From an uncultured virus (IMG/VR IMGVR_UViG_2061766007_004178) (taxonomy: Duplodnaviria > Heunggongvirae > Uroviricota > Caudoviricetes), in IMG/VR virus record IMGVR_UViG_2061766007_004178: 64,000 bases of DNA, one strand, 5' to 3'. Below are positions 17,807 to 64,000 of this stretch, in pieces. A program made the translations under genes and the position numbers. Position 1 is the stretch's first letter, and the number at the start of each line of letters is the position of its first letter. The notes beneath the pieces were generated by a model. It saw only the letters and a program-made list of their open reading frames with translations. It ran no database searches and was not told the origin of the DNA.

Positions 17807-20800
17807 CTATTTTTCTTCGTCAGGGCGTCTTTCGGCGTCGATTTTCTCGATGTTTCCGTCTTTATAATATATAACGGCTTTCTTCCCGTCGGTCCTGATG
17901 AAGTTGATGTTGCTGCTAGGTAAGCCGGTCCTGATCTCCTCCTCAGGTTGCTTATCGCTTTCTTTGAGGGATTCATCGCATTCGGCGCAGATCCAGCTGC
18001 CGTCGTCGGCNNNNNNNNNNNNNNNNNNNNNNNNNNNNNNNNNNNNNNNNNNNNNNTTCGTAGTCTTCGTCGTGCTCGACGTCGTCTTCGACGCTTTCGA
18101 CGACCGTAAGGGTCTCGCCGCGGGATTTGAGATCGGCGACGCATCTGCTGCAAAGCCAGCCGAAGTTGAGCTCGTGCTTCATCTCGCCAGCCGTTTCGAC
18201 GTCGCCGCACCAGGCGCAGTGATGGAGCGTGTCGAATCCTTCTAGGCTGTTTCCGTCTTCGTCGCAGTTGTATTCGGCCTGCTCTTCGGGAGTGAAGCGC
18301 TCTGGCTTATCATCGGCGCCTTCGGTCAGCTTGAGGCCTTCCGCGAAGCTTCTGTTAGGGTAAGCGACATAGACCGTGCCGCAGGATTTGTACTGGGCTT
18401 TGAATTTCTTGGTCTCGTCGAAGACGCTGTCGCAGACGATAGGATCCTTCAGCTCGAAGAATTTTCCGTCGTACGATTTGTTCGAATAGCCGTAGATGAC
18501 CGGTTTGTTTTTGGATTTGGCGACGGCGAGCGCTTTGTTGTAGCTGACTTCCTTATCGCCTTCTTCTTTGGCTTCCGTCAGGCTTTCGCTGATGATTTCG
18601 AATTTATCGGATTCAGGGATGATCGCGAGCCCTCCCCAAGTGCCGTGCAGCTGGCCGAGGTCATCGATGTGGTCAATGACGCCTTCTTTGCCGAAATAGG
18701 ATTCGTCTTCATCGGCTAAGGATATGATTCTTATCTTATCGCCGACTTTAGCATGTAATTCAGCAGCAGCTTCTTGAAGAGCGTTATGCTCACTTACTGG
18801 AAAATCTTGATCAAATGAACTTTTTTGTAAAGATTCATTTAAGCCAAGAGCTTTTCTAATGGGCTTTTCATATTCTGGGTAGTCAGAAGCAGTTCTTTCT
18901 TCTTGTTCTTCACTTGGGTCATAGACAGAGCAAATTAGATCGCCTTCATCTTTTTCTTCAAATGGTGGAAACATTTGTATTCAATTTAATCCGACTTTAT
19001 CTTTATCTTCTTGACTAAGCTTATTAATATAATCTAAAATTTCTTTTAAGGCATCATCAGCTAGTGGATGATTATTATTTTCTACTTCGTTACGATGAGT
19101 GCCATTATCATCAAGCCAAATACTATAATTACCATAAAGAGGATATTCATCTTCATAGTCTGACCAATCAGGCTCTATATCACCTTGATAGATAAGCTCA
19201 AATCCTGGACATTCACCAGCATATAGTTTACGATAGCCATTATAGCCAAGGTTTTTTAAGGTTCAAAGAGTAAGTTCTTTATTTTTAGACTGCTCAACTA
19301 AATCATCAAAAATGGCTTGCTCTTTTTCACTTGGGGCAGTGTATTTAATAACACCTGGCGCAGTGTCTCCACCACCTAAACCAAAGTCTAATCAATCTGG
19401 ATAGCAATCATCTACTGCTTTTTTGGCTTCACTTTCATCGTAGCCAATGTAATAAATATCATCACCACCATCACCAATAACAGCAGCAATATAATTTGGT
19501 TTAGAAATAGCTTCTGTTAATTGTTCTTTAACCACTGGCTCTTCAATAGATTTTTCAATAACAGGCTCTTCAATGACAGGGGTCTCTTCTTTGTGCTCGC
19601 CGCCGAACGGTATCTCGGAAGTGGCGTCGATAAGCTCATCGATATGCTCTTTCTCTTCAGCTTCTATATGATTGATTGTATCGATTAAGTCGTCTTTGTG
19701 CTCGATTGGCTTGTCTAAGATGTCCGCTTTGGCAGTCTCATAGTTGTCTATCGCGCTGATCTCGTCGTTAACGAGGTTGTTCAGCTCCTGATGGACTTCG
19801 AGTTTGACCGCCTCTGGGTCTGGCGGAAGCTCGTCTTCGTCTTTCTTTTTGGCGGCTTCTTCTAGGGTCTCAATCATTCGGCCATGCCTGTCGGTGACGG
19901 TGCCGTCGTCGCAGACTATGAAATCTTCGCCGCAGTCTCTGCAGATGTATTTAGAACTGTCGTCATCAGAATCTATGAGGTCGATATTGTCGCCGTGGCA
20001 GTATGGGCAAGTGCCGTCGTCTTCTTTGGCTTCAGTCAGCTCTTCATTGATTTTAATATCGACTTTTTCGCCGGCCAGCGGTTTTTCTAAGGCTGGCTTT
20101 TTCATCTTGCAGTCCAAAGGCTTCTCGTCTTCAGAATGAGCGATGACCTTAGCGACGTCGCATTTGACGACCGCGTTATCGGTTCCTTGCAGCTTCTGGT
20201 CGCTTTCGATGGCTGCAGGTCTGTCATTAATGTGTTCTCTCAGGCTTTCTTCGATAATCTCAAGAGAATCATCGAATTTGTCGTGGCCGCCAACTAATTC
20301 GAATTCAATGGCGTCATCTTCGACTTTGGCGTCCTTCGGCAGCGTTTTCCAGTAAGCAAGTTTATGGCTTAAATCCAAAATCTCTTTATCATCTGGATAA
20401 GTTTCTTCGCCTCTGTAAGCAAATTGAACGTAACCGATATCTTTTCCTTTATAAGAAATTTTATAAAGGAGCGGGTCATGGTCTGATCAATTCATTGGAT
20501 CATCGTCTTCCCACCAGTACTCGTCTAGTTTTTTCTCTTCGATGCCGGCTTCGTGCTTTCTGACTTCATCGGCGTCGAGAGGCTCNNNNNNNNNNNNNNN
20601 NNNNNNNNNNNNNNNNNNNNNNNNNNTCTTGGGTCTTCGTACTCCAAGTCAAACGGATCGGCGTCGATCAAGTCGAGGTTGGTTCCCTGATGGCTGTGGC
20701 GCTCTTGGTCGCATTTGACGCAAAGGTAGCCGTCGTCTGTCTTGACGCATTCGGCTTTCGGGAAAAGCTCGAAGCAGCATTTGCACTCGACGGTGTCTTC

Positions 20801-21016
20801 GTGCTCTTCGAGGTTTCTGACCGCCTCTTTGATGTCCAGCTCTTCGCATTGGGCCGGTCTGTCTGGCTCATCCCAATCCGCGGGGGCTTCTGGGATGCCG
20901 TTATACAAATCGGCGAGCTCGGCGTATTCCTTGTCGTCGGTCTCTTTCAGGCCCTCTATGTCAGACGCAGGGAAATCCTGGTCCAATTCGTTGATTTCTT
21001 TTTCGATCACTGTCAT
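17807..21016 (-). CDS. about 1070 aa acidic multidomain protein (several CxxC zinc ribbons, DUF4314-like domain); putative protease-processed head cargo
   Basis: ORF-track pieces join into one frame when TGA at 20487, 19392, 19263 and 18981 is read as Trp and two N gaps are bridged; late promoter upstream; repeated L-x-E motifs. Confidence 0.7.
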
Positions 21017-21048
21017 GGGTTTTTCTCCTTAAAAGCAGCTTTATCAAA

Positions 21049-21057
21049 TAATTTAGC
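21049..21057 (-). promoter_or_regulatory. putative late promoter motif GCTAAATTA
   Basis: Exact motif upstream of the 21016 start. Confidence 0.65.
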
Positions 21058-21073
21058 AAATTTAAGGGCGCAT

Positions 21074-21477: not shown

Positions 21478-23042
21478 TTAATAATACAAAGCCACACAGC
21501 TATTGCCGCCGTCGCCACCGAGTTTGATGGCTGNNNNNNNNNNNNNNNNNNNNNNNNNNNNNNNNNNNNNNNNNNNNNNNNNNNNNNNNNNNNNNNNNNN
21601 NNNNNNNNNNNNNNNNNNNNNNNNNNNNNNNNNNNNNCATAGTAAGATGCGCCTCCTCCGCTGGCGAACATCTTATCAGGGCCCCATACTTCGCCTGATG
21701 CTCCGCCTCCGAAGCCTCCGACGACTTTCGATAGGCCTGGCTTGATGTAATACCCTTCATCGCGGACCGCTCGCAGCGTATGCGCTTCTGAGCTTTCTCC
21801 GGGGCGGCCGTCGCTGCCGCCGGCTTTGCCGCTGATGAATGCATCCGACAATTTGTTGCCGTTTTTGAATTTGATCGGCCAGAATATCGGTTCATGCTGG
21901 TCTGTGTATTGGTCGTTCGTGATTGAGGCTTTGCCGCCTGCTCCGCCTTGGGCCGGAATTGAAGGAATGTGCGGCGTATCGGCTACGATTNNNNNNNNNN
22001 NNNNNNNNNNNNNNNNNNNNNNNNNNNNNNNNNNNNNNNNNNNNNNNNNNNNNNNNNNNNNNNNNNNNNNNNNNNNNNNNNNNNNNNNNNNNNNNNNNNN
22101 NNNNNNNNNNNNNNNNNNNNNNNNNNNNNNNNNNNNNNNNNNNNNNNNNNNNNNNNNNNNNNNNNNNNNNNNNNNNNNNNNNNNNNNNNNNNNNNNNNNN
22201 NNNNNNNNNNNNNNNNNNNNNNNNNNNNNNNNNNNNNNNNNNNNNNNNNNNNNNNNNNNNNNNNNNNNNNNNNNNNNNNNNNNNNNNNNNNNNNNNNNNN
22301 NNNNNNNNNNNNNNNNNNNNNNNNNNNNNNNNNNNNNNNNNNNNNNNNNNNNNNNNNNNNNNNNNNNNNNNNNNNNNNNNNNNNNNNNNNNNNNNNNNNN
22401 NNNNNNNNNNNNNNNNNNNNNNNNNNNNNNNNNNNNNNNNNNNNNNNNNNNNNNNNNNNNNNNNNNNNNNNNNNNNNNNNNNNNNNNNNNNNNNNNNNNN
22501 NNNNNNNNNNNNNNNNNNNNNNNNNNNNNNNNNNNNNNNNNNNNNNNNNNNNNNNNNNNNNNNNNNNNNNNNNNNNNAGTGCTTCCGCTGCCGCCTCCGC
22601 CGGCGCCTTGCATGACCATGAATATCCTGTCTGGGATTACGCCGTCTCGGAAATCTGACGCGACTAAAAAACGCCTTCCGCCAGGATATTCTATGACGAG
22701 CGTTTCGGCGTCGTCGATTGTCTCTATGCTTAATGTGCAGGTCTGCTCAGCGTTTGCGCCAGTATGGTCGAACGAGAAAAATTCATTGTCAAAACTAGGC
22801 TTATAGCCTGGCAGGACCACATAGCCTGCGTCATGCTTCGAGCTGTCATCTTCGAAGCCGGCGAATTCGAACTCCATGGCGTCTTGTCAAGGTTCCGTCT
22901 TGAGAACGCCAGATATGCGCTTTCCGTCGGAATAATAATAGTTTTTGAATTCGATTGCCGGGAATTTGATGCGATCAGTGTTGACGAGGTATGGATAGGC
23001 CTGGTTGCCGTGATAATACTGTTTGTTTACGTCTGAACCCAT
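21478..23042 (-). CDS. glycine-rich tail fibre tip/adhesin-like protein
   Basis: QGAGGGGSG, AQGGAGG, ASGGGAS and terminal GGDGGNSCVALYY; TGA at 22887 read as Trp; large N gaps. Confidence 0.6.
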
Positions 23043-23059: not shown

Positions 23060-25938
23060 TTATTTGCTTTCGAGTTTTTTCTTGAGGTCTCTGACTTCTT
23101 CGAGCAGCAGATAGACCAGCTTGGTCTCTTGGATGCTCAGATAGCCGTCGTTTTCGACAGAGACAAGCTCTGGGCAGATCTTCTGAAGGTCCTGCGCCAG
23201 GCATCCGATTTGGCCTTTGCTGCCGTTAATGAAATCATATTTGTAGATAGGCAGGTCTAAGATAGAGCCATTTGGCTTGTATTCGGCGAAGTTTTCTTTC
23301 AGGCGGCTGTCTGAGGTCGCATGGAAGCTGTCTGCCGTGATTCTGCCTGTCGTTGTGATGTCGCCGGTAGTAGTCAGATGGCACTCATCGTCAATCGTCA
23401 TGTTGCCGTAATCGGTATGGATGTAGGCCGCTTTGGAATTGAGATAGTCACCGAGCTCGACCCATGCGTGTCCGTCATGTTTGATCGTCACTTTTCCGCC
23501 GGTCTCGGCATCGTTTTTGACGACGAGCTTATCGGCTACCGTTTTNNNNNNNNNNNNNNNNNNNNNNNNNNNNNNTGCCCCAGCTCGCTATATTGCCTGA
23601 AGGCGATTGCGGCTTTCTTTGAAGCGCCATTGCGCCAAGTGGCGAATTCGGCTTCGGTCAGCTTATTGCTGCTGGCGCTTAAGTCGAGTTTGAATAGCGG
23701 CCTTGAGGCGGTTAAGCCAGCTTTGAAGACGCTGCTTGTATCATTCTGTTCGATGATCGTGCTCAATGAGTGTTCGATTTCGATGTCTGGGGCTTTGATT
23801 GGGTTCTTGGCCTCTATTCCGTTTGTCGCCGACAGCAATATCTTATTCTGAGCGGCGAGATAGAGGCAGTTGTCGGTCCAGCTTGAGATGCTCGGTGTAT
23901 TTCCTGCCGATATCCTTGTGGTTGAGCCGCTGACGCCGTTTCCGATCGACATGACGTGGTCGTCGAATTTTATGACGCTGGTATCGTTGTATTTGATGTT
24001 GACGGTCTTGTTCTGTTCGAGAGGATCTCTTTCGAACTTGAGGTTGTCGTATAATGTGGTAAGGCCAGATATCGCGGTTTCGCCGTTGATGTCGGTGCTG
24101 CCTATGAGGACGATCGCCTCATCTTCGCCTCCGAGCGTGACGCTGCCTTCGATATTGGCGTCGCCGGCGACGTCGAGGTCATTTCCGACGCTAAGTTTAT
24201 CGGTTATCTCGGTCTCGCCGTCTATCGTCGTTTCGCCGGTCAGGTTTATATGTTCGCTCGCCAGGCTCAGTATATCGCCTGTTTTGCTGTATTGTATCTT
24301 GCTGGCATCGCCCTGTTTGATGTCGAGGTTGTTCAGCTTGATGTTGACCGTCTGGGCGGCCAGGTCGGCTTTGTACGTATTGGCCGAGGCGTCTTTCTCC
24401 AGGCTGAATTTTCCGTAGGTGCTGCTGGCCGAGGTGAGGGTCATGCTGATTTTGCCTGGGACGCCGGATGCGTTGCTCTGAAGCAGGATCTGCTCGGCGC
24501 CGTTGCCGAGGAGCCTGATTTTGTCGGTGGCTTTGATTTTCGTCTCGCTTTCGCGCATGTCGACGAAATCGGCGTCGTGTCTGTTGACACGCAGCCTATC
24601 TAAGGCGATGACATCGGCGGAATGCTCGNNNNNNNNNNNNNNNNNNNNNNNNNNNNNNNNNNNNNNNNNNNNNNNNNNNNNNNNNNNNNNNNNNNNNNNN
24701 NNNNNNNNNNNNNNNNNNNNNNNNNNNNNNNNNNNNNNNNNNNNNNNNNNNNNNNNNNNNNNNNNNNNNNNNNNNNNNNNNNNNNNNNNNNNNNNNNNNN
24801 NNNNNNNNNNNNNNNNNNNNNNNNNNNNNNNNNNNNNNNNNNNNNNNNNNNNNNNNNNNNNNNNNNNNNNNNNNNNNNNNNNNNNNNNNNNNNNNNNNNN
24901 NNNNNNNNNNNNNNNNNNNNNNNNNNNNNNNNNNNNNNNNNNNNNNNNNNNNNNNNNNNNNNNNNNNNNNNNNNNNNNNNNNNNNNNNNNNNNNNNNNNN
25001 NNNNNNNNNNNNNNNNNNNNNNNNNNNNNNNNNNNNNNNNNNNNNNNNNNNNNNNNNNNNNNNNNNNNNNNNNNNNNNNNNNNNNNNNNNNNNNNNNNNN
25101 NNNNNNNNNNNNNNNNNNNNNNNNNNNNNNNNNNNNNNNNNNNNNNNNNNNNNNNNNNNNNNNNNNNNNNNNNNNNNNNNNNNNNNNNNNNNNNNNNNNN
25201 NNNNNNNNNNNNNNNNNNNNNNNNNNNNNNNNNNNNNNNNNNNNNNNNNNNNNNNNNNNNNNNNNNNNNNNNNNNNNNNNNNNNNNNNNNNNNNNNNNNN
25301 NNNNNNNNNNNNNNNNNNNNNNNNNNNNNNNNNNAGCTTGGTTTGTCTTGCTGCCCAAGATGATCGAGGTCACGATTTTTCCGCTACTGTCGGTTTTGTA
25401 TCCTGAGCCTGATTTTATATTAGGCAGATAATTGCTGCAGACGGTTTGTCCTGCAGCNNNNNNNNNNNNNNNNNNNNNNNNNNNGGGATATCCGCCGCGA
25501 TGCCGATGCCAGCGAAGTAGTAATCCGTTCCGCCTGGAGCGACTAACGCATCCAACTCGTTTGAGCTGCCGCCGTCGCATCTGGCAAGGACTTTGGTGAC
25601 CCTTACGCTTTCAGGAACCAAATTGTCCGCGATATCGGATCCAACCAATTCGATGCCCCTGAGCATTATATATAAATATTTGTCTTTGAGTTCTTCTACG
25701 GTGGCGGAATCGATATCGGATAACTCGAAATAGTAGCCGCCGATTACGCNNNNNNNNNNAGGAGATAGCTGCCATTGCCGTTCAAAAGGCCGCCGGTTCT
25801 GACTGTGTTGTATTCAGACGGTATGCGGGATTCTGGGTCGAACGTGTATTCGCCTCAATGGCCTCTGAATGAGACTGGGTAGGCTTTTACGTCGCCGCTC
25901 TTGAAGTATTTGTTTCCATCGACAGTAAGTAAGCTCAT
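23060..25938 (-). CDS. tail fibre protein with C-terminal intramolecular chaperone (peptidase S74-like); may be more than one gene
   Basis: Start MSLLTVDGNK at 25938 (TGA at 25855 as Trp); beta-rich repeats; C-terminal ATSDSRLKENF...IGCLAQDLQKICPELV...coiled coil; about 700 bp N gap inside. Confidence 0.6.
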
Positions 25939-27287: not shown

Positions 27288-30200
27288 TTATGCCTTTGAA
27301 TTCTTGGCGATGACGATGTGGTCTTTCAGGTAATCCGCGTCTATCTCGCTGATGACGAATTTATTGTCGACGTTGTTGTAGTTGTACCAGTTGAGCGGGT
27401 TGTCCCTCAATGTGTCTTCGGCGTCGGCCGCGTTCAGATCGAGCGCGCTTTCGTTGTCGATTTTCGCGTTGTAGTAGAAGTTGAAGTTCGGGTCGACGGC
27501 TTTGATGTCGCTTAAAATCTGCTCATAAGCGGTGGTTTTGTCGATCGCGTTGTAGCAAAGCTTGTCGTTGAGCGGATGCGCCGCGTCGACGATATCGAGC
27601 TTGCCGAAGATGATTGTGGCGCTCTTCGATGACGCATTGTCGATCGAGTACTGGATTTCCGCGCAGTCGTCCCCTATCTTGATGATATTGAGGCCTTTGC
27701 GCAAGCGTCCCGTGTCTTCTGACCACCATTCGCCGCCGTTGTTGAAGATCTCCAGCGAGGCGTCTGTGCCGTCGGCCTTTTTGGCCGCGACCAAAGGATT
27801 AGGGCTCGTGGGCGAGTTGATGCAGTAGACCATGATCAAGCCGAAATAATCGTCAGGCATGATCGTGCTCAGCTTCAGGTACGGTCCGCTCGTGGTGGCG
27901 TCTTCGAACGTGATCTTCGTGTACTCTCCGTCTCCGAAGTTGTTCATGTTTAGCGTCGTCAGGCCGCTGCCTGAGGCGTCTTCGTTGTATTTCAGCTCGA
28001 CGCTCTTGTAGATTTTGAGCTGGGTGTCATATTGAGGCACGCTTCCTCCGGTCGTCTCGTACTCTTCGACCAAGAAGGTCCTGTTGCAGCCGCTTTGGAT
28101 GAGCTTATTGGCTTTGACAGAAATCGGCTCGCCAGGGNNNNNNNNNNNNNNNNNNNNNNNNNNNNNNNNNNNNNNNTTGTCCCAAATCTCAATTACGTCT
28201 TTCGACTGCGTATCGCCGTTGAGTTTGCTTATGTTGAGTATCTGCGGGGTCGATGGGCTGATGTTGAGGTTGAGCCTCGTCCTGACCTCCCAGTTGATGC
28301 CGCTGCCCAGATTGATGATGTCGAGGTGTTCGGATTGGCCGGCTTCCTCGTATTTGTATACCGTGTTTTCCGGGTCGGTGATAGGCTGCCACTCATTGGT
28401 GAGCTGGTGGTCGATGACGCTTGGGCTGTCGAGCGTGATCAAAATGCTGCCCTCCGTCAGCGTGATGTATTTGTATTCGTGGAATTCGAGGTTGTGGTTC
28501 TCTCCGCCGAAGTTATACGATCTCCATGGGATCGCCGCGCTCAGGCCGAGCGTGATGATATCTTCGGCCGATACGGATTGCTCGTTTTTCGTCTTGTAGA
28601 TGGTCGGCGTAGAATTCTGCTTTCTGATCTTCGTTCCGGCGCCGTAGTACGCGAGGTCGTTCTTATCTTTGTTGGTGTAGAAGAAATACTCGCCGTCTTT
28701 CAGCGTGTAGCTCGTCTCTCCGTCTTCGTCGAATTCGAAGATTATCCTGCCATAGGCGTCTGCGTTGGCCGCNNNNNNNNNNNNNNNNNNNTGTTGGTCT
28801 GAGGTTCGTCTAAGACGACTGAGATAAATTTGCGCTCTTCGATCTGCTCATTGGCGCCGAGCGTGAACATGCCGGCGACGTCGATAGGGACGACGTTTCC
28901 AGAATCGTCTCTGAAATCGCCAAAGCCCGACGTCTTCGTATAGGAGTGCGTCGATCTGTATTCTTGGCTGTCGGCCAAGGCGAAGCTAGGCCTGATGATG
29001 TGTCCTGGGCCGATATATCTGTTCACCACGGTCTTGCCGGTGCCTTCGGTCGAAGTGGCATGAGTGTAGTTGATCAGCAGGTATTCGTTCTGGCCGAGAA
29101 GGTGCTCTTCGTTCGGCGAGAGCATCGTGATGTCGGCGTTCTGTCCTAAGCCGTCTTTCGTGTACCAGGTCTCTGGGCTCGTGCCTGCTGGGCAATAGTC
29201 TTCGTCATGCGTCTCTTGGACGTAGAACGCGGTGAATGGGTCGGCCTCGCTCCTTCAGGTCTCCGTCTCGACGTATTTGACGTGGTTGCGGTCGACGTAT
29301 TTGCCGTAGCTGAGGCTATAGTCGGACGGTTTCGCGTAGAATATGCCGGATAATTTATCGTGGGCCTCGTCATAGTCCCTAGACTTGACCCAGCCTACCC
29401 ATGCGGCGAATGTGCTGCTGCTCAATGGTAGATAATAGTAGCTTTCGTTCGCGGTGTACGCTTCGGCGTAATGGTATATATAAGAATTGGAATTCTCGAC
29501 TTGCGTCCTTGTGAACAGCGCCTTGCGCTCTTGCTTCTTGCTGAGGAAGTTGGTCGCGTTTACTGTCGCGTCTCTGACAGCCTGAACGGCCGTCGTCGCC
29601 GATTCCCAGATGGCGCCATGGGCGGCTGGGTCATCGTCGTTGATATCGGAATTGAGATAATTCAATAAATTACGCATCGTGGCTGGGATGCCTACTTTGG
29701 AGCCGGTTTTCTTCTGGCCCTTGAAGTAATAGTTGACATACGCCGGATAGGTGCATTCCGTCTTGAGGTTAGGCATCCTGAACTGAACGACTTCGTTGGC
29801 TGTCAGTTTAACATTGCTCGAATCGCGGTAGATGACGTAGTTCGATTCTATTTTATAGATGCCGTTCGTCTTGTCGGCGTTTATCTCGGCAGGGTAAAGA
29901 AGGTCGTAATGCTCCTGCGCTCCGCCGGATTCCCATTCGCTCAGCGCGGCCTCGTTGTAGTCTGACGTGAAGCTGCTGTTGTAATTGAAAAGCGGGATCC
30001 TGCCGGCCAAGACGTTGTTCAGGACCAATTTGTTGAAGTATATGTCGCCGGAAAGGTTTTCCATGATGGATCTCGCGGTTTCGCCTGAGATAGGGTATTC
30101 CTCTCCGCTGACGGTGCATGCGTAAGTCGCTATCTCGACTGGGTCGAGCGGACAAGACTTGATTCTGGCGTCAGCGTTCTGGATGACGCTTTCGATGTCT

Positions 30201-31901
30201 TCTTCGACGAGCTCTTCGCCGAAATCGACCTTGCGCATATTGAAGTTCTCATAGAGCTTCGAATAGATGTTGGCGAGGATATCGAGCTGCTCGATCGCGT
30301 TCACTTTCTTGTTCGTGACGACTTTCGCGCTCAATCTGTAGTAGTTTTTGATGCACGCGATATCGGAGCCTGAAGGCGAGACGATGTTATGGGACAGCGT
30401 CTTGTTCTCCTCGATGTCCTGCTTTATGTCCAGAAGGTTGACGTCGTCGTATTTGAACGATTTCTGGTATTCGGTCTTGGTGTTGAGGTTGTATACGGTC
30501 GAGAACGGATAGAACACGAGGTCGAAGCGTTCGAGCGGCCTGTTGGCCTCAAGCTGCCTGANNNNNNNNNNNNNNNNNNNNNNNNNNNNNNNNNNNNNNN
30601 NNNNNNNNNNNNNNNNNNNNNACTTTGCCGAGCTGCGCTCTGAGCAGCTCTTCCTGATCCGCAGGCGCCGCGCTGTTGATGTTGTCGGCGATGGCTTGGA
30701 GATCCGCCAGGTCGTGCGTGGCATCCGCGGAGGCGAATGGGTTTCTGGCGGCGTTTCTGTATTCGATGCCGTGAGGGCCGAAAGTGCAGAGCGTGAACGN
30801 NNNNNNNNNNNNNNNNNNNNNNNAGAGACGATTATGTTCGAGACGAGCGGCGTGGTGTCGGTCTGGCTCATCGTCAGCTGGTAGATCTTGTTCATGTAAT
30901 CCCTGCAGGCGACGAGCGTGTCGAAAGTGCCGATGGTCTTTTTGTAATTGTTGTACGCATCGGTCAACGTCTCTATGTTGGCGCCGTTCTTGGCGGCTGA
31001 CGCGTTCGTGACGGCGTAGTTGTCAGGGTTCAGGTATGGGGCGTCGGTATTGGCCTCTTCGTCTCCGTTGGCGGTCTGCCAGCTTACAGGCTTCTCCATT
31101 TTGTAGAGGGTTCTGGCGGAGATGTTGCCGTTTGCGCCGTTCGTCCTTATGTATCTGATCCTCAGGCCGTCCTCGATGATGTTCGAGATGTCGTCTGGGA
31201 ACTGTATGTACGGCAGATTCTCCTTGGAATCGTAGCCGAACTTATAGCAATGCTTGCCGAGAGGCTGGGTATTNNNNNNNNNNCTCCTGGCCGTCGTTGA
31301 CGTTGAAGATTATGACGCCGTTCTCGGCTATCTGGGTCTCAGGCAGGTAATATCTGTTGTTGTCGTCGAGCTGCATGATCGAGACGATGTTGTCGTTGTC
31401 GGTCTCGCATTCGATGAGCTCGCCTTCGATGCAAGGGACCTCGACCGAATACGAATTCTCGTTGACGAACCTGTCTTCGAGCATGACGTAGTTGATTGTG
31501 TCGTCGACGTCTTTTATGTTGGTGAACCTGTCGATTTTCCATACGCCTTGGATAGGGCTGGACGAATTCAGCGTGTAGGTTATCTTGACGTTCGTGGTCG
31601 CGGATAGGTAATACTTGATGTTGTAGCCGAGCATCTCGGTTATCTTCCTCATGGATTCCATCTGCGCCGCGCTCGGCATGAACGCCTCCAGCGCGCTGAT
31701 GTCGACGTTGTAGTTTATCTTGTCGGCGACCGCCGTGAGCACTTTCAAAAGGACGATGCCAGGATCGCTCTCGTTGGTGTTCGCCGGATCTCAGATATCG
31801 CTTATCTTGCTGGCGAGATCCATGAGCTCGTTCCAAATCTGGTAGAAATCCTTTTTGGTCGCGCTCAGCCTGACGGCGTTAAGCTCTTCTTGTGTTATCA
31901 T
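27288..31901 (-). CDS. large baseplate wedge protein (gp6/baseplate J-like N-terminus), about 1500 aa
   Basis: MITQEELNAV...SDI[TGA=W]DPANTNESDPGIVLLKVL...; YIRTNGANGN, DTLVACRDY; TGA at 31791 and 29255; several N gaps. Confidence 0.75.
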
Positions 31902-32351: not shown

Positions 32352-35300
32352 CTAACCATTGCTTGGGTAATCCGGGTCNNNNNNNNNNNNNNNNNNNNCG
32401 TAGTGCGTCCTCAGATTATATAAGCCCAGCGGCCGGCGCCTTGGTCATTGCCTATGAAGAGCGATCGTCTTTTCTTTGAGAATACTGTCAATGGGTGCAC
32501 TACGGTGTGAAGACCAGTCAAATCAAAGCTGTGCACGTTGCCTTGTGGGTCAGTTCACGAAAGCACTCTTCCAGATACCGTGATCAGGCTATCATCATTG
32601 ACATTTATGGCTCCNNNNNNNNNNNNNNNNNNNNNNNNNNNTCAGCCTTCGATATAAAAATCTGTGTCGATTCTAAGTCAGGCGTCTTCTGCTATTCAGC
32701 CAGTTACGCCGCTGATAATCTTACGATAAGACCCACGCGGCGATTCAGCATCTCACTCTGCGCCACAAACAGGATAGTTTTTATAGCCATTTACTCAATT
32801 TAAATTGACTTGTGAGGCAGAAAGTACGTTTACGTGCGCGATATTATGCGAATTCATTTCGATATTATCAGCAAAACTAACCGGGTTTAGGCCACTAGCG
32901 TAATCGCCATATATTGTCTGTGTATGAAGAGAATTACTATAGGTGCTTTGCCATCAGTAATCTTGGTCACCAAGATTGATATACGTTAGACGATCTTTGG
33001 CGCTGTATTTTGGCAATAATGCGCCCATAGAATAAACGCCGGCTGGAAAGCTCTGTGTGGCGCTCGCTTTTATATTGTAGTCGTAAAAAACGCCAGGGCT
33101 GATTCTATCAGGATGTACGAGATACTGGGCGCCTAAGCTACTTCTAATCAACCAGCCAGTATTAGTTATATCTGAATAATCGGCCCATTCCGGAATTTGG
33201 CCTTGGCTGCTGTCAAATATAGCTGTATCTGAAAATGTTATGCCAGCCTGTATTTCTTGGTCTGTATAATCGTCTGGGTCAAGGATGCCGGATATTTCGA
33301 GCCAAGTCGAAGGGCTTTCGCCATGGGTGTAGCTGTACGGCCAAAGCCTAAAGCTGAATGGCAGCTTGATTCCAGAGCTTTTCCAGTCATCTGGCAGCGT
33401 CTGAGTCAGGAATTTGATGGTATAATTCAGTTTTATGCTCACTCAGCCTGAGTCGGTCCACATATAACCCGGACTGTCTCAGCTAATCTGTGAACCAACA
33501 GACCAAAGCATTGAATTGGTGCGATTGAACCAAAAACCTGAAGCATCCGTATCACGCAATTTAATTGTAAGGTCTTTGTTGACAATAAATCTTCCAGATC
33601 CAGCATTGTCGCTGTCGATTCGCACACCATAGCTGTTATTGACATTGCCGAGTTGCATGGCTCCATCGCTGAGTTTTATTGTATCACCGAGTTTAATTGC
33701 GCTGCCGCTGAGCTCTATATTAATGTCGCCAGTTGATGGGTCAGTTGAATAAAGTCTATCGGTGTCTATAGTAAAACCGCCGATGTGGCCGCCTGAGGCA
33801 TTTATCGTTCCGGAAATGTCTGCGTTATTCGCATATAGCTTACCGTCATCGATCTTTACTTCATTAACTTCGCCGGCCTGTTCGCCGTTTTCGCGCAAAA
33901 GAAGCCCGTCATTGCCGATGTATACTCCTGTATCCGTAGTATCTGATAAGCTATCAAGTGAGTTGGTATATAGACTACTATCTGTAACCGTAAAGCCGCC
34001 TATGCTGACTTTATTCGTATCGCTGTTTGCATCCGCGTCTGCCTTGAAGAGCACGTGATGCGAGCTGTCTTCGACTGTGATTTTGTTTGCCGTGATGTCC
34101 AGAGCGCTGATGTAGCTCGAGGTCAGCTTGCTCAAGACTAATTCGCCGCCGATGTCGGTCCAGGTGCCTACATGCGTTGTCGGATTGACGTATACGCATT
34201 GCTGCATTTCGCCGTGGGTATAGCAAGATGTACTGCCGGCCGTTATGTCTAGTGTTTCGTAGTTATCCGCGGTGACTTGTGTTTTTACGTTGTCGACGTC
34301 GACATAGAAGCCGATATAGCCGTTTTTTGTCGTAGGTTTTGGCAGATGCTCAGTATAGCCTGAATTGACCCAGATATCACCGACTTTCAAAGTATCGCCG
34401 GTAGGTGCGGTGTCAGTATAATATGTTGTTGATTTCGCGTTTGCGGTCTCTTGGGCCGCGTTGGCGTTTGCGAAAGCGTCCAAACCGGATGTGCAGGTAA
34501 TGCCACTTAACGCATCCGTATAGTTCCACGTTCCGCCGGTGCTGTCATATTCGTAGGTTCTGGTTCTGACGGCAGACCATATGTAATTGGCGTCGTTATG
34601 GGCCGGCATAGATGTAGATCAGTCAGCTGGATCCGTGCTAGGCTGCTGCTGCTCTTTCGCCATCGACAGATAAACGGTTTCGACAGTCGTCGGATATCCG
34701 GCGAGTTTGACCGTAGGCGTGTTTATTTCGACGCTCTCTCGATCGATTTTGAAGATGTTGAGGCCGGCTTCTGGCAGCCCTTGCGTGCCGTCCTGGTCAT
34801 AGGCTTTTATGGTTCAGCTGTCGACGTCTAAATTCCAGCCGAAGCCGCGTCTGGTATGCGTTTCTGGGTCGACGGGGTCGGCATTGACCTTATCGACTTT
34901 CGCATGCACTTCTGTGGCGGTCTGTTCGATCGTGGTCGAAAGCTCTCCTTCTTTTTGGGTGGCGCGACTGACCTCGCTGCGGATGCTTGAGGCATTTTGG
35001 TTTATTCTGGAATTCTGCAGGGTGTTTTCTTCGTCGAGTCTCGCGATTTCCGCGCCGATGTTTTCGCCGTCGTCTATCAATCTGATGTTGATGGCGCCTA
35101 TCTGGGTTTCCTGCTTTTTGATGCCTCTGACGATGTCCGCGATGCTCTTGTAGCTCGCCAGATCGCCGTCGACCTCGACTTTGTCCAGGTTGGTCGGGTC
35201 GTTGTTCAGGGTGAGCTCCGTGTCGATAGGGATGGAGATAGGCGAGGACGATTTGACGTTCGCCGCATTGACGGCGCCTCTCGGGTCCTTGCTCTCGACG

Positions 35301-35520
35301 TCGGCGCCGAGGTACAGCTTGCCCATGACTATAGGCATGTCTATGTCGTTGTTCTCGAAGCTGACTATTACGACGTCTCCGACCTTATATCCGTTGTAGA
35401 TGCCCGGCTGATTGGAGAAAGTGGCGGTCACGACTGTCTCTTTGTCGCTCGCGGCGCTTTCGAAAACAGGCAGCCTNNNNNNNNNNNNNNNNNNNNNNNN
35501 NNNNNNNNNNNNNNNNNNNT
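32352..35520 (-). CDS. baseplate central spike (OB-fold-like N-terminus) fused to fibre/receptor-binding region, about 1050 aa
   Basis: YKVGDVVIVSFENNDIDMPIVMG (gp5/gpV-like OB pattern), coiled coil, D[W]STSMP...YIWS, IGGFT repeats; continuous only if 11 TGA are Trp; ends in TAG at 32352. Confidence 0.7.
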
Positions 35521-46036: not shown

Positions 46037-47827
46037 TTATTTGGCCGTATACAATCCGGTCTTTTCGGCGAGCTTGACGAGAAGCTCTTCTAATTGTTTC
46101 TTGTTGTAGGTCAGGTTGTCCAGTCTGAGCTTGGACTCGATGGCCCTGAACCTGCCGATAGGCAACGGCGTCGTATCGTGGATGTTGTACAGGACGCCTG
46201 TTTTGCTCTGGGCGTTCGCGATGCCCATCTGAAGCTGCCTGTCGAGCCTGAAGGCGTCGATGATGTATCTGATTATCTCTTTCGCCTCTTGCTTGTCGGT
46301 GACGTTCTGAAGGACTCTCGCGACGTCGCGATCGGTGGCGATGTTCTTGTCATCTATCTCGCCTCCGACCAAAAGCTCTAATGTCTGCCTGATAGGGGTG
46401 ATGTTGCGCAGCCTGCCTCCTGGGGTCAGGGTCGCGTCGAACGTCCTGAGGTTGCCGTCCGCGAGCATCAGGTTGTTCAGGACCTGGGCTCTGCCCATCT
46501 GGTCGCCGTTGACGTAGATGTTGCGGGCGTTCGGGCTGAGTTGGTCATGATGGTCTCTCAGATAGGCCTGAAGCCTCAGATAGTCTTTCGTATCGCGGTC
46601 GTAGACGTTGGGGTTGAATATGAGGTTGCTCTTGCCGAACGTGCTTCTGTCGCCGCCTCTGAAATCCTCTTTCTTCAGCTCGCCGTTCGCCAAGGCGTTA
46701 TGCAGCCTGACGTACGCCGATTTGTCGAATTTGGTTCCGAGTATCGCGTTTATCTCAGGCGTTTTCATGAAGCTCAGTATCGGGTTCGTGATATCGTCCC
46801 AGCCGATGTCTTTGAGGTCTGACGTGAACGCGGCGCCGAGATCCTCGACGGCCTGCGCTTTCTTCCCTCATTCGGCTTTGAAGTAGCCGGCTTGGAGTAT
46901 CCTCTTCGCGGCGTTCGGTTTGCCGTGCCAGAACATCTCGAATTCCTCAGGCGTATTGCATTCGCTGTACAAAGCCTCCCAATCGGCTTTCTGAGACGTT
47001 TGGTAGGCGTCTTTGTCTGAATTCTGCTCCGCGATCAGCGTCGCGCCGAGCGCGTCCGACAAAGACATGAATTTATCGAAAAGCGCGATGCGAGCGTCTA
47101 TTTTGGAGTCCTCTTTCACGCTCTTCAGCTTGGATATGGTCGAGATGTTGGCCGTAAGGTTCTTGACGGCGTTGAAGTATTCCTGCGCGTCGGCGTCTTC
47201 GGCGGCCTTCAATATGTCGCCTGAGACGAAATACTTGGCAGGTATCTTATCGGACAGCATGCGCTCTATCTTGGCGCATTTGTCCACGATGGAGTTGAGC
47301 GAGCCTATCTTCTGGTCGAGTCTGACTTTGTTCTTGAAGAGGGTCAGGTTGTCATGGACCCTCTGAAGCTCGTCGAGAAGGTATTTTTTGGATACGTTCT
47401 GGTCTTTGGCGTCGTTTTCGAAAGTCGTCAGAGCCCTTTTGAAATCCTGAGCCTCGTGGGTGTTCATGATGTTTTTGTATTTATCTATGGCCTGCAGGAA
47501 TTTATTGACGTGCTCGATATAGCCATCTGTGCCGGTTATGAGCTTCTTGATATCAAGCAAGCCGCCGCCTAATTTCGTCTTGGCGGTATCGATGGCTTTC
47601 TTCGAATTCTCGATTTCCTTCAAAGCCGACTCTATGTTCCTGATGGACGTGAAAGTGTTCACGGAGCTCTCTGTATCCGCTATGACGGCTGGGAACCTGC
47701 CTTTGAGGTTGGCCCTGGCGTTCTGGATATACTGGAGGATATTCGAAACAAGGCCATTGTCGGCCTCGTCTAAGACGAACCTCTCGTTGAGTATGTGCTT
47801 GACGCTTTCTTCTAAAACGAATTTCAT
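46037..47827 (-). CDS. about 596 aa helical protein, probable head-internal protein
   Basis: Two track ORFs are in frame across TGA at 46868 (FKAE-W-GKKAQ); N-terminus MKFVLEESVKHILNERFVLDEA has tandem L-x-E motifs. Confidence 0.7.
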
Positions 47828-47828
47828 A

Positions 47829-52060: not shown

Positions 52061-53007
52061 TTAAAAGTATAAGAAACAGCCCGGGCGACCGTCAGCTTTG
52101 AGCTCTTTTGATTCAGCTTCGGAAATGAAGCTTATGTTAGACACGTGTAACGGTTCTAAATTCAGCTTAAAATATTTTAGCGCCTCATTGATATTTCGAA
52201 GTCAGCTTACAACATGCACCCATTTTGAATATCTATAGTTGGACTCATTGACTGCATATAATTTCTGCCTGAATNNNNNNNNNNNNNNNNNGATACATAA
52301 TGTATCGCTTTCGCTTTACCATACAGCTCATTAAATTTTTCTATGGTGAAATTGTCGTTCATGACGCCGTAAGTGGCCGAAAGCTGCAACTCTGGCTTGT
52401 TTTGCCAGTCTTTATAATAGAAATTCAAGACCGCTTGATCATGCCAACCAACAGTTTTGTCGAGTTTGCCTAAATTTTCTAAAATAGACTGACCGATGCC
52501 TGGATTGTGCTCGAAGTCTCAGACGAAAAGCCCGCTGCAGAAGATAGAATCGCCTATATGATACTTAGTGGCTATTTTGTTCTTCGACGGCCATTCGTCT
52601 GCGATTGCGCTCATATGTGGGCAATCCATCAGCTCATCGATGTTGTCGAAGAACTGCATATCAGAATCTAAGTAGACTATTTTATTGAATTTCTGCTCGA
52701 TTTTAGCTCCTATAATAGCCAGCTTAGCGAAAGCGGCTTTATAATGCGGAACGTTTGCGAGACTGGTCTTTTTTGAGATCACGGAAGTCGAAATTTTTAT
52801 GATATTTAGACCAATTTGCTTTAGAATTGCTAGCGTTTTTTCAGAAACCTCTTCTGTTACGGCGCAGTACATAGGGTATTTCGTCTTAAATTTCAGCATG
52901 TCGTAATACGCGCCGATCAGCATATATACGTAATAATTGTTCGAGCTCAAAAAGAACATCCATGCTCGGTCTATTTTATTTGCTTTGTTATAGCTTACTT
53001 TCGCCAT
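52061..53007 (-). CDS. GT8-family glycosyltransferase
   Basis: KIVYLDSD (DxD), NIDEL, FCSGLFV-[TGA=W], HDQAVLN, KAIHY; TGA at 52519 and probably 52202 read as Trp; end inferred across N gap. Confidence 0.8.
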
Positions 53008-54471: not shown

Positions 54472-54507
54472 TGTTTTCTCCTAAGAATTGTGGCAGTAAG
54501 ATGCCGG

Positions 54508-56299: not shown

Positions 56300-56390
56300 T
56301 TCTCGGTCTCCTTTAAAATTTAGCAATCGCGTTTTTAATAAATTATTAAATTATTAAAAAGTCATGCTTGCGATCTTGTCAGTTGTCAAT

Positions 56391-56399
56391 TAATTTAGC
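56391..56399 (-). promoter_or_regulatory. putative late promoter motif GCTAAATTA
   Basis: Exact motif; a variant GCTAAATTT lies near 56317. Confidence 0.65.
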
Positions 56400-56427
56400 G
56401 AATAAAATGGAAATAGTTTAATAAAAT

Positions 56428-56453
56428 AATAAAAAGCCCCGATAAGGGGCTTT
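56428..56453 (-). terminator. intrinsic terminator
   Basis: AAAGCCCC-TTATC-GGGGCTTT plus T-run. Confidence 0.7.
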
Positions 56454-56476
56454 CTGTCGTTTTGCTTGAATTTCGA

Positions 56477-56950: not shown

Positions 56951-56974
56951 GATGGTGTTTCCTTTCGAATTCCG

Positions 56975-58984: not shown

Positions 58985-59001
58985 TTTCAATCTCCTTTAA
59001 T

Positions 59002-61091
59002 TTATATAACTATGATGCCGTCTGCGATGTCTTTCCAGGTCTCATACTCGGCTTTCTCAGCTTGGGTCCTTTCGTCGTCGCAGTCTTTCAGCTCAGCGTA
59101 GATTTTCTGCAGCTCGGCCTGATAATCGGCCATGAGCTGCTTCTTGTCTTTCGAATCTTCCGTCTTCATGCTGACGCTGAGCGAAGCATCGATGTTATCT
59201 CCGTAGTTATATGCGTATTCCTCCGCATGCTTGCTGGCGTTCCATAAGGCGCCGACGACGGCGTCTATCTGGTCTTTTGAACCGGATCTGCCCGCGTCAG
59301 GGTGTTCGATATGGCCGTCTGACAGCCTTTCGAGGCCCAAGACCTCTTCGGTCAGGAATTTGCATTCTTTGTATATCTTCAATCGCATATCCGTCATGGT
59401 GGTTTTGAAATATGCGTATTGATCTTGCTGCTGCGTTCTTGCGTTGACGCGGTCGACTGATATCTGCGTATAGGCGAATCCGTCGGACTCAAGATCCTGT
59501 CCCATTATTGATCCGCTTCAAGAGTCGGTCGAAACGCCTTTGATGTTGAAGCCCTGGTCTCTCAGCCATCTGAGGAAATTCCTGTGCTTCATGAAGCTGA
59601 TGGAGTATCCTTTAGGCGCTTTGATCGAAATGGAGAACGCGAGCCTGTAATACATCTCTCGCGTGATGTCTTCACCTTCGATGCTCGGTCGCTTGCCTTC
59701 TATCCAAACGCCTGCGATGCCGGTTTTGTCACCCTTGCCTTTTTGGCCTGACGACATATCTAAGTGGATGAACAGCGGCCTGGCTTTCCATTTGTCTGGG
59801 ATTTTCGACAAATCGAAGAAATTGGCGTACTGCGCATGATCTTCTGGATTGGTACCGACCTCAATATATCCGGTATCGGTCATCGCGAATGGGTTTTCGT
59901 AATTGTCTTTTATGCGGTTCCAGATGGCGCCTGATATATATTTAACAGCGGAAGCCGTCGATTTGCCGGCGATTTCCATCAAGGCCAATTCNNNNNNNNN
60001 NNNNNNNNNNNNNNNNNNNCGCTAGGAATGCTGAGTATTTCGGTATAGCCTTTCGCTCTGTAGACGCTTTCGTCTACGTCGTCCGGGATCAGCTCGTTAG
60101 GCAAATATCTGTCGCCGACGGCGACTTTGAACCATTTGCCTGTCTGCTTTCTGCTGTCGACGATCCATTGAGGCTCATCGACGATGAGGGTCGTCTTGGA
60201 TTCATTTTTCTTCTTCATCTCGATATAGTCGTCCAAGAACGACTGATCGCTCGTTTTCGAAGATGCGATTATGTTCAATGTAGGCAGGTAGTCTCCGCGC
60301 AAGAAACGGGAAGCCATACGTGAATCGACTTGCGAGATGATCTGCTTAAGCCTTTCTTTCTGCCTTTCGACGTTCGTGCTTCTGGCGTCGAAGTTGACCT
60401 CATCCTCGAAGGACGCGAACAGAGCGCGGCCTATGATTTGGTTGTTGGATGAGGCGCATACGAATTCGATGTGCTTCTCAGGGCGGTAAATCAGGTTCGT
60501 CGTGCCATGCATCTCGCCGTGGGCCATGAATCAGTCGCTGGCCAATATCAGCTGATTGAGTTTGTCCAAAGCGACGCCTTTGGCGTTCTCGATGGTGATG
60601 TTCATCAGGGAGATCGTGATTTTGTCGATGGCCTGCATGCCGTAATATGTGTATGGGTCATGGAGGCAAAGCAGTCTGTAGAGCATGTATAGCAAACAGA
60701 CGACCGCGAAGGTCGATTTGCCGATACCGATGGCGCCGGTCAATATGATCGTGTTGTATTTGGTCGAGATGTTGTCGGGGAATACGTCCTCGAGCACTTT
60801 CTCTCAGTATGGGAAAAGCGTGAACCTTCCGTCTCTGTCGTATAAGCCGTTGCCGAGATAGGTCCTGTCATGCAAGAACGTATGGATGTCGACCGGTATC
60901 TCGTCGAANNNNNNNNNNNNNNNNNNNNNNNNNNNNNNNNNNNNNNNNNNNGATTTGCCGTCGTTCGCCAAAACCTCTTTGAAGATCTTCATGACCGCTT
61001 CCCTCTCTTCGCGGGAAAGCGGCCCCATGATCTCGTCGTATCCTGGGACGTTCGCTTCTGATATGTTAAGGTCCTTTAAATCGTCTGACAT
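59002..61091 (-). CDS. terL: terminase large subunit
   Basis: Walker A GAIGIGKST, Walker B-like FEDEV, IASS, nuclease IHLDMS, SKDQIDA; five track ORFs join via TGA at 60804, 60531, 59518 and one N gap. Confidence 0.9.
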
Positions 61092-61141
61092 ATTATGTTA
61101 TAATATTATACATTAATCGGCGTCGTATCTGAGTTTTCGCG

Positions 61142-62044: not shown

Positions 62045-62061
62045 ATAGATTTATTAAAAAT

Positions 62062-62091
62062 AAAGAAAAAGCCCGCGTTTAAGCGAGCTTT
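62062..62091 (-). terminator. intrinsic terminator
   Basis: AAAGCTCGC/GCGGGCTTT stem plus T-run. Confidence 0.6.
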
Positions 62092-62106
62092 GGTTTCAGC
62101 CATGTT

Positions 62107-64000
62107 TTAATTCAGTTTGATTCTGCCGCAGATATTCTGGTATCTCGGAGGTATGCCGCCGTTGGCGATCGTCCTGCTCCAATTGCCGAATTCGTATCTG
62201 CCGCTGGTCTGCTGGACCCATTCGACCCAGCTTGCCCTTCTGAGCGCGTCTACGATCCTCATGGCGTCGTTCGAGCTTATGTTATAGAACTCGAATACGC
62301 CGTTCGAGCGCAGGATAGGCTGCGCGCCCGCCAATCTGGCGAGCTTCGTCAGATATTCGCGCCTCTCCGGCTCAGTGAGCTCGAAGGCTTCGAGAAGCGA
62401 TTCCTGCAGCAATTCGCCGATGGTTTTCTGCGCGTCGGCGTCTTGGATGACCATGACCGGGAAATCGATGTCCCAGCCGAACATCTCGCCTAACGCGTAC
62501 ATCCTATGCCTGCCCTCGATGCCACCGATGTCCTCGATCGAGCTGAAGCTCACGTATGGGAGCGGAAGCTTTTTGTTGAACTTGAGTATGACGTCTTTGA
62601 TATGGGCTATCTGCCTTTCGTCTTTCGATATGAAATCGATTATCTCGTCAGGCGACGTATCCTGGGCTTTGCCACAGAGCTCGAAATACTGGGTCGGCGT
62701 GATCTGGGCGATCGTGTACATCGCGCTTCTGTAGCGGCCGTCGTCGCTGCCGTCGAGCAGGTCTTGCGTCTGAAGCGTGCTGGCTTTGCGCGTGTCTATG
62801 ACGTCTTGGCCATTCGCCTCTTCGGTTCCGTAATCCTTGAACTCATGGTCGTCGTCAAGATACTTGATGCCTTCCTCTAATGACAGCTTTTTGCTGGCGA
62901 TTTTCAGCTTGAGGTCTTTCAGTTTGTCGAGCAGACCGGCGTTCCTGACTTCCTTGAAGATGAGGTTTTCGGTAGAGAATTCGCTGCCGGTGGCGCTGTG
63001 CAGGCCTTGCTGCCTCAGCTCATACAATCTGTTTATGTAGTCGTCTATCTCTTCGTCTCCGTCGGCGATGTTGTCGCTCGCGGATTTCACGAGCGCTTTC
63101 GCCTCTTCTATCCAAGGCGCGGCTGCTTTGTCGATGGCTTTCTGGTCGATATCGGGGACATAGCTTTCAGTCGGCTCTTTTATCCACCTGTCGTACATGA
63201 TGGAATAGACGCCGTTGCTGATGAGGTTGCTGTTGTCGGCCATTTCGATATAGGTCTCGACGGGGATGCCGTAGAAGGAGATGTCGTATCTGCTTTCGAA
63301 TATCCTGCGGTACGCGTTATATAATTTCTGGTACAGCTCGGATTGTTCTATGCCTTCTGGCGTCTCTGCCACGAGATGCACGTCGAGGTCGCTGTCTTTC
63401 GTGTAATTGTAGCTGGCGTTCGAGCCTGCCAAAATGACGTCTCTGATTTTCAGGCGGACGCCGTCTTCGAAGAGCATTTTGATGTATTCGTTGGCGATAT
63501 CCTGCACTTTCTGCCTGACTTCAGGCTTAAGCTCGTCGCCGTCGAATATCTTCTGGTTTAGTTCGTTGTGTTTCTCGATTGCTTCGTTCATATCGCTTCC
63601 CTCTAGGCTTTCGGCGTAATGCTTGCTTTTGTTATGCAGATAAGCTCCGCCGCATGTCGTATAGACTTTACGCGTGTTTTTCAGGTCCCTTATCTCTGGC
63701 TCTGGGTCGCCATAATGCCAGTCAGGGTCGTTTTTGATTTTGATCGGCTCATCGGTGATGGTATAGCTCCAATCACTGAGGTTCGGCGTTCTCGTCTGCG
63801 CACGCCCGCTCATGAAATTGGCTGCGAAATTGAATGCCTTGCTTCTATCGTCGAACAATGGCGTATCGTATCAGCTGTGCCCGCCGGCGGTTNNNNNNNN
63901 NNNNNNNNNNNNNNNNNNNNNNNNGCGATTTTTGCCGATGAGAATATGGCGTCTGATGCCGTCTGGTCTATAAGCTACTATTCGGTAAAACTGATCGGTC
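62107..64000 (-). CDS. multidomain protein with Pol-beta-type nucleotidyltransferase and ParB/Srx-like domains (5' end outside window)
   Basis: ILAGSNASYNYTKDSDLDVH (GS...DxD), IEGRHRMYAL; frame continues upstream through TGA at 63871 (GGHS-W-YDTPLF). Confidence 0.75.

Follow-up and report, generated by a model that had tools for sequence, protein, structure and literature searches.

We analyzed a 64,000-nucleotide stretch of DNA from an uncultured virus of the Caudoviricetes (IMG/VR record IMGVR_UViG_2061766007_004178; “the window” hereafter means the whole of this stretch), in which in-frame TGA codons interrupt genes of the virion module. The minus strand carries all genes of the window, and searches with PHROGs and Pfam place a T4-like virion module at ~18 to 64 kb. 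We hold with high confidence that the window is a ~64 kb portion of a T4-like jumbo phage from the ruminant gut and, jointly with this, that 27 TGA codons in its late module encode tryptophan (Trp). The pieces that carry these codons, and the non-structural region that lacks them, are given below; a site named by a single coordinate is given by the first base of the minus-strand codon, while a first-pass annotation of the same DNA used the lowest base of the same codon.

62110..63891, minus strand: phrog_36119-type protein upstream of the terminase (PHROG match), with one TGA at 63871-63873, an open frame and a high coding score downstream of it
60021..60908, minus strand: ATPase part of the terminase large subunit, with TGA at 60804-60806 and 60531-60533
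59005..59991, minus strand: nuclease part of the terminase large subunit, in a frame different from that of the ATPase part and separated from it by a run of N, with TGA at 59518-59520
52294..53007, minus strand: glycosyltransferase family 8 (GT8) protein (PF01501), with TGA at 52519-52521
52064..52273, minus strand: short piece past a run of N that probably completes the GT8 gene (open frame and weak coding score), with TGA at 52202-52204
46040..47827, minus strand: 596-amino-acid protein of the virion module, with no family assigned and TGA at 46868-46870
32642..35476, minus strand: N-free piece of the spike/fibre protein, 945 codons, with ten in-frame TGA (34816, 34621, 33481, 33445, 32956, 32797, 32755, 32698, 32680 and 32644)
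32399..32614, minus strand: piece beyond a run of N that is probably the C-terminal part of the fibre (open frame and weak coding score of 6.4), with TGA at 32555-32557 and 32411-32413
31284..31901, minus strand: baseplate wedge subunit (phrog_219, by PHROG match), with TGA at 31791-31793
28793..30559, minus strand: large baseplate wedge protein, with TGA at 29255-29257
25762..25938, minus strand: small open reading frame (ORF) in the tail-fibre region, with TGA at 25855-25857 and coding scores of 16.4 and 16.5 on its two sides
22578..23042, minus strand: start of a protein of the tail-fibre region, with TGA at 22887-22889 and coding scores of 22.8 and 22.5 on its two sides
18057..20585, minus strand: 843-codon acidic protein with a DUF4314 domain (Pfam), with four TGA at 20489, 19394, 19265 and 18983
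2..17158, minus strand: non-structural region with nicotinamide adenine dinucleotide (NAD) salvage genes, an RNA ligase, a GIY-YIG-like ORF and small ORFs, and no credible in-frame TGA

The window contains 45 runs of N totalling 2,887 bases, and the reading frame is not always preserved across them (the terminase at 61091-59005 and the segments 41448-39239 and 31273-28793 are affected), such that genes unbroken in relatives show as two or three frames here. The two terminase halves, for instance, lie in the same frame, 30-36 bases apart, in relatives L001-L004. Because frame is lost across these runs, naive ORF lists mislead, and all ORF analysis was done separately on each N-free stretch. A codon-usage score trained on 26 long standard-code ORFs picked 88 coding pieces (18,465 codons) containing 182 TGG and 29 in-frame TGA codons, 27 of the latter credible and all of these on the minus strand above 18.9 kb. 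The other two, 17059 and 8957, were set aside, as they lie upstream of likely starts and the coding score is negative there. About 18 extra TGAs offered by a naive ORF list under genetic code table 4 (TGA = Trp) are artefacts of N runs or lost frame; they include 59981, 45668, the cluster at 43794-43470, 42653, 40176, 20870, 20651, 17975 and 11870. We treat 20585-18057 as one protein because one and the same tblastn alignment with relative G002 reaches from 20582 to 18093 (31% identity); at its four TGA columns, however, the alignment is poor.

Within the coding pieces, TGA behaves as a sense codon and not as a terminator. Where a piece has a visible stop (50 pieces), it is TAA in 36, TAG in 14 and never TGA, and below 17.8 kb no ORF was found to have a TGA close to its 3' end. 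The in-frame rate of TGA is 1.6 per 1000 codons, whereas its off-frame rate is 21.5 per 1000. Neither TAA nor TAG interrupts the 945 codons of the fibre frame, although off frame the two are found at 21 per 1000 codons; of the eight Trp codons in the last ~180 visible codons of the fibre, seven are TGA. The first-pass annotation had already reported TAA or TAG at the end of every late gene whose stop can be seen, which agrees with our counts, and every TGA that it named is present; its totals were low, at 26 in-frame TGAs rather than 27 and eleven in the fibre gene rather than the 12 that we count (ten in 35476-32642 and two in 32614-32399).

An imperfect assembly of this kind, with frame lost at several N runs, could suggest that the TGAs are true stops or artefacts, arising from genome decay, consensus errors, selenocysteine insertion or low-level readthrough. 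We give this explanation almost no credence. A contig from a second run of the same sample, assembled independently, is identical over 32642-35372, including all ten TGAs of that fibre piece, as is a contig from the possible source run. Runs X4 and X5 leave stretches of the fibre uncovered, an absence that carries no weight, and none of the sequencing runs listed as containing the sequence is of RNA. Partial relatives occur in goat-gut and bovine-gut runs from two other studies, and 37 of the 40 listed strain differences (there are 42 further ones) fall at third positions of the fibre frame, on both sides of TGA 34621; third-position variation continues across TGAs. The same TGA columns are also conserved in relatives from other records. 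The TGAs are not assembly errors. A fragment of the fibre (33479-34609, minus strand) stands in a public protein library as a separate 376-amino-acid protein identical to the window (P0156), and the source contig was therefore annotated under the standard code. In viral contigs, a search for the fibre gave three pattern matches, none confirmed, and no close relative in the viral collection.

The residue specified by TGA can be read most clearly in the terminase. Neither PHROGs nor Pfam gives a match for the split terminase itself, but it has 974 homologues at E ≤ 0.001, the best 120 of which carry PF27249. Among these best 120, the column of TGA 60806 holds tryptophan (W) in 120/120 and that of TGA 60533 in 119/120, with one leucine; the column of TGA 59520, covered by 118 of them, is aromatic in a more mixed fashion (F 69, Y 36, W 13), and its codon in close relatives is TGG in three and TGA in one. 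At the codon level, the 60806 column is TGG in 59 and TGA in 19 of 78 viral terminase loci, and the 60533 column is TGG in 68 and TGA in 12 of 80, with no other codon at either. A third terminase column, TGG in the window, is TGA in 3 of 79 loci. Overall, the ATPase segment contains one or more TGAs in 22 of the 80 terminase loci and none in the other 58.

Full-length homologues align across the TGAs in the terminase, wedge, fibre and 596-amino-acid proteins. The column of 46870 in the 596-amino-acid protein is W in both homologues found (2/2), within a conserved motif. In the fibre, W occupies the 34816 column in 44 of 63 homologues, the 34621 column in 24 of 68, and the 32956 column in the closest homologue, whose alignment extends to residue 896 and which continues for 90 residues more. 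The column of 29257 in the large wedge protein, covered by 9 of 33 homologues, is mixed (W 3, Y 3, A 1, D 1, L 1), and that of 31793 in the wedge subunit is TGG in G002 and TGA in G001. The GT8 site 52521 is TGA in both G001 and G002 and lies opposite F in glycogenin-2, a weak match.

We also made the comparison in the opposite direction, using the contigs of four relatives and keeping 116 of 152 alignments after dropping those that were off frame, then requiring at least 30% identity and at least 80 bits. Opposite 71 in-frame TGAs of G001-G003 in good context, the window has TGG at 46, TGA at 10, an aromatic codon at 7 and another codon at 8; the fourth relative, G004, has no TGA in any aligned gene. 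TGA and TGG interchange freely at the same columns among relatives.

These columns also bear on two other amino acids. Under table 25, TGA is likewise a sense codon, read as glycine, and open frames alone would be compatible with it; the first-pass annotation, which proposed Trp, had named glycine columns as one possible sign that it was mistaken. Glycine was found in 0/120 and 0/120 homologues at the two terminase columns, 2/63 and 1/68 at the two fibre columns, 0/2 at 46870 and 0/9 at 29257, it dominates no readable column, and no GGN codon lies opposite any of the relatives' 71 TGAs, 46 of which are matched by TGG. Glycine is therefore a reading with next to no probability, and the assignment to Trp made in the first pass is borne out by the W counts given above (120/120, 119/120, 2/2, 44/63 and 24/68). 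Selenocysteine fares no better, since the columns are W and not C, and no readable column is dominated by cysteine (selenocysteine insertion sequence [SECIS] elements were not searched). To judge from the alignments, TGA stands for Trp or an aromatic residue wherever a column is readable, and glycine is excluded.

Taken together, it is very probable that the 27 TGAs of the virion module are translated as Trp; the non-structural genes contain no such codon, and TGA serves nowhere in the window as a visible stop. Several results nonetheless weigh against this reading. For about 17 of the 27 sites no homologue column can be read, and these rest on frame continuity and coding score. Columns could not be read at 63873, 25857, 22889 and 52204, at all four TGAs of the protein at 20585-18057, or at the final eight TGAs of the fibre. 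Weakest are the final six of the fibre, with 32557 and 32413 the least certain. Site 63873 lies opposite TTA in the sole aligned relative, in poor context (3/12 identical), the fibre column of 33445 has no W among 11, and fibre site 32797 lies opposite G in one weak alignment. Coding density, which the first-pass annotation had suggested comparing between tables, does not favour table 4: the greedy density is 0.846 under table 11 and 0.798 under table 4, a test that is uninformative here because only 27 sites are involved and frames are broken by N runs. Cover by ORFs of at least 200 amino acids rises from 0.662 to 0.833 when TGA is taken as sense, but reaches 0.825 when TAA is (stop to stop). 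Counts of stops with coding on both sides (TGA 21, TAA 22, TAG 10) do not discriminate either, because neighbouring genes often share a frame. As to decoding, the window offers no machinery: ARAGORN finds no transfer RNA (tRNA), Rfam gives no match at the gathering score or at E ≤ 1 and no group I intron, and Pfam on 76 window pieces reveals no release factor and no aminoacyl-tRNA synthetase, in agreement with the first-pass observation that neither a suppressor tRNA nor a release factor is visible. The RF-1 domain was not found in any of the nine relatives searched. No tRNA was found in the closest relatives (G001-G003, G010 and G012), fragments judged 23-46% complete, from which the whole tRNA array is missing as well. 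Relative G011 (83% complete, with one TGA in the terminase segment) has three tRNAs, none with anticodon UCA. A search for a 7-base anticodon-loop motif gave 19 matches, all within coding sequence, and was uninformative.

The more complete relatives are informative about how TGA may be decoded. Five of them (G005-G009) were judged 96-100% complete; all have tRNA arrays, and the complete relatives measure 220-237 kb. A tRNA(UCA) is present in 3/3 complete recoded relatives (G005, G006 and G007, which have TGA in the terminase) versus 0/2 complete standard-code relatives (G008 and G009). The anticodon loop of this tRNA equals that of the phages' tRNA-Trp except at position 34, and both have G as discriminator. 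Tryptophanyl-tRNA synthetase (TrpRS; TIGR00233, 304 and 317 bits, cut-off 177) occurs only in G005 and G007, where it adjoins a Lon protease within the tRNA array and has an uninterrupted frame in the standard code; in the two standard-code relatives, TrpRS and tRNA(UCA) are both absent. ARAGORN labels the relatives' tRNA(UCA) “SeC,” which could be taken to favour selenocysteine. tRNA-Sec has a long variable arm, however, and the tRNA(UCA)s of G005 and G007 are ordinary 75-nucleotide cloverleaves without one.

The tRNA(UCA) of G006 (L135:2900-2995, minus strand) differs in form: it is 96 nucleotides long, and the loop of its extra arm copies 6 of the 7 bases of the tRNA-Trp anticodon loop. G006 lacks TrpRS, whereas G005 and G007 combine a plain 75-nucleotide tRNA(UCA) with it, and there may be two different routes by which the phages have the suppressor charged (n = 3 relatives). 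ARAGORN also reports a transfer-messenger RNA (tmRNA) gene in G006 (L136:2756-3129, minus strand) and, in the standard-code relative G009 (L140:9167-9255, minus strand), an 89-nucleotide tRNA-like gene with the four-base anticodon tcac.

In the mechanism that we propose, TGA would be decoded by a phage-encoded tRNA(UCA) derived from tRNA-Trp, accompanied in some relatives by a phage TrpRS, both in a tRNA array that would lie outside the window. Since the window contains no tRNA, we infer this suppressor from the relatives. The host would use the standard code, as the literature on such phages suggests, and TGA-bearing genes could then be completed only after the suppressor is expressed, tying virion production to late infection. 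TGA might also be read as Trp by a host suppressor, by a near-cognate tRNA-Trp(CCA) with special features, or by an intron-hidden suppressor elsewhere in the genome. Such decoding accords with the lack of tRNAs in the window and in the fragments of its nearest relatives, and with G011, which has a tRNA-Trp(CCA) and no UCA tRNA. Borges et al. (10.1101/2021.08.26.457843) likewise found suppressors of TGA in just 35% of the genomes recoded at this codon, and a 2026 paper (PMC13092985) deals with a tRNA-Trp(CCA) with 4-bp anticodon stems that reads UGA. Against it, the tRNA(UCA) of each of the three complete recoded relatives is canonical or nearly so, and we regard decoding by these other routes as unlikely.

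The reassignment is partial: within the window it affects structural genes and no others, and it is not an organism-wide code 4. Below 17.8 kb, Trp codons comprise 57 TGG and 0 TGA in 4,509 codons; above it, they comprise 125 TGG and 27 TGA (27/152; Fisher P = 1.2e-4 versus below). ORFs that the coding score missed (radical-SAM-like, GIY-YIG-like and others) have no internal TGA either. The closest relatives are divided in the same manner but use TGA much more: G002, by crude gene calls in which TGAs upstream of starts were retained, has 139 TGG and 156 TGA in 1-80 kb, and 71 and 11 in 80-100 kb.

A host that itself uses table 4, of the Mollicutes type, would share its code with the phage without any stage-specific switch. 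The use of TGA for Trp and the lack of TGA stops in the window fit this explanation and the one we favour equally. However, none of the 57 non-structural Trp codons is TGA, 58 of the 80 terminase loci of the clade are without it, and a table-4 host would make the relatives' own tRNA(UCA) and two TrpRS unnecessary. Known table-4 bacteria are AT-rich and use this table genome-wide, and the coding guanine-plus-cytosine (GC) content of the window, ~0.50-0.53, is unlike theirs. We consider such a host very unlikely. Late-gene recoding by the phage, rather than a Mycoplasma-type code, is the reading we adopt because of the 0/57 non-structural TGA, the standard-code members of the clade and the relatives' own tRNA(UCA). 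Of the genetic code 4 put forward in the first-pass annotation, the equation of TGA with Trp stands, but an organism-wide code of the Mycoplasma type does not, given the same 0/57. A hint about the host was sought by comparing the NAD synthase with bacterial genomes; it gave one weak 33-residue match and was not used.

In composition, the window stands apart from its own clade. Its coding GC averages ~0.51, with a GC content at third codon positions (GC3) of ~0.7, versus 0.28-0.37 in 79 of 80 related terminase loci (the exception, L053, is at 0.49 and has no TGA), and TGA makes up 18% of its late Trp codons versus roughly half in the relatives closest to it. The genes in which TGA is concentrated are those with the lowest GC3, namely the fibre (0.54), the 843-codon protein (0.46) and GT8 (0.50). 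If the fibre is not a low-GC3 cassette acquired from an AT-rich recoded relative, TGA might be actively selected in host-range genes against mutational pressure. Bearing on this are the TGAs kept at ancestral terminase columns and the many new ones gained in the fast-evolving fibre despite ~51% GC. We think selection of this kind rather doubtful; if it were real, recoding would be a functional lock on late and host-range genes and not a by-product of AT drift.

The remaining virion genes identified by PHROGs and Pfam include a tail sheath C-terminal domain, a tail tube, a T4 baseplate hub (T4_baseplate), a gp25-like protein, wedge proteins and, near the fibre, an S74 chaperone; no lysis genes were identified in the window, and megablast of 46000-64000 against a phage collection gave no match. 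Below 17.8 kb, Pfam identifies a nicotinamidase-like protein, NAD synthase, a cytidylyltransferase-like protein, NAPRTase and an RNA ligase. The positions of the main genes are:

56978-58990, minus strand: Portal_T4 (PHROGs/Pfam)
54511-56238, minus strand: prohead protease, Peptidase_S77 (PHROGs/Pfam)
53116-54471, minus strand: Gp23-type capsid protein (PHROGs/Pfam)
13889-14896, minus strand: NAPRTase (Pfam)
10939-11508, minus strand: cytidylyltransferase-like protein (Pfam)
10227-10955, minus strand: NAD synthase (Pfam)
9618-10169, minus strand: isochorismatase/nicotinamidase-like protein (Pfam)

The last four form a complete-looking Preiss-Handler NAD salvage set (9618-14896, minus strand), none of whose genes contains TGA, and its role may be to restore NAD+ during infection. 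Two ORFs in the same region, 13263-13886 and 15100-15915 (both minus strand), are of atypical composition and were missed by the coding-score filter. One has a CxxxCxxC motif like that of radical-SAM enzymes; the other is GIY-YIG-like, in a stretch of 37% GC, and is possibly a homing endonuclease (both labels were given by eye).

For annotation, the consequence is practical: the standard code cuts virion genes of this phage, those of the terminase, fibre and wedge among them, into fragments, so that late-module genes of the clade must be called with TGA = Trp. The window adds a T4-like, relatively GC-rich jumbo phage of the ruminant gut to the opal-recoded phages, within a terminase clade where recoded and standard-code members stand side by side (22/80 loci with TGA) and where, in a small set, the presence of tRNA(UCA) tracks recoding (3/3 versus 0/2). 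It raises no question beyond those already posed in the literature.

Among known systems, NCBI table 4 (Mycoplasma, Spiroplasma) reads UGA as Trp through a tRNA with anticodon UCA, as the relatives appear to do; unlike table 4, recoding in the window is partial, with 0/57 non-structural Trp codons as TGA, and coding GC is ~51%. Phages of Absconditabacteria and Gracilibacteria, mentioned in Borges et al. (10.1101/2021.08.26.457843; see also PMC10746230), use table 25, where TGA is sense as in the window, but the residue is glycine there and the columns are Trp or aromatic here. Yutin et al. 2021 (PMC7886860) describe crAss-like phages whose late genes read TGA as Trp or TAG as Gln. These phages resemble the clade studied here in that suppressor tRNAs correlate imperfectly with recoding and codes switch at short phylogenetic distance; unlike them, the window has a portal, capsid, protease, tail tube and baseplate of T4-like type and not a crAss-type podovirus module. 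Recoding in hallmark genes is also reported in a 2026 jumbo-phage survey.

The closest parallel is with the code-4 phages of gut and rumen in Borges et al. (10.1101/2021.08.26.457843). That study describes TGA judged to be Trp from terminase columns, recoded structural and lysis genes, the loss of TGA as a stop, mixed codes within clades, and suppressor tRNAs in a minority of genomes. The window and its relatives share with these phages the terminase TGAs at Trp columns, the concentration in structural genes, the lack of TGA stops, recoded and standard-code members within one clade, and an animal gut habitat. The likeness is greatest to the ~200-kb Jade clade, which has TrpRS and tRNA(UCA); two Jade phages are described there as carrying both TrpRS and RF1. 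The two genomes differ in this from the nine relatives searched, in which no RF1 was found; by features, our clade otherwise resembles Jade, with relatives of 220-237 kb and, in two of them, tRNA(UCA) together with a standard-code TrpRS. The phenomenon seen in the window, late-gene opal recoding, is already known, and its composition is slightly unusual.

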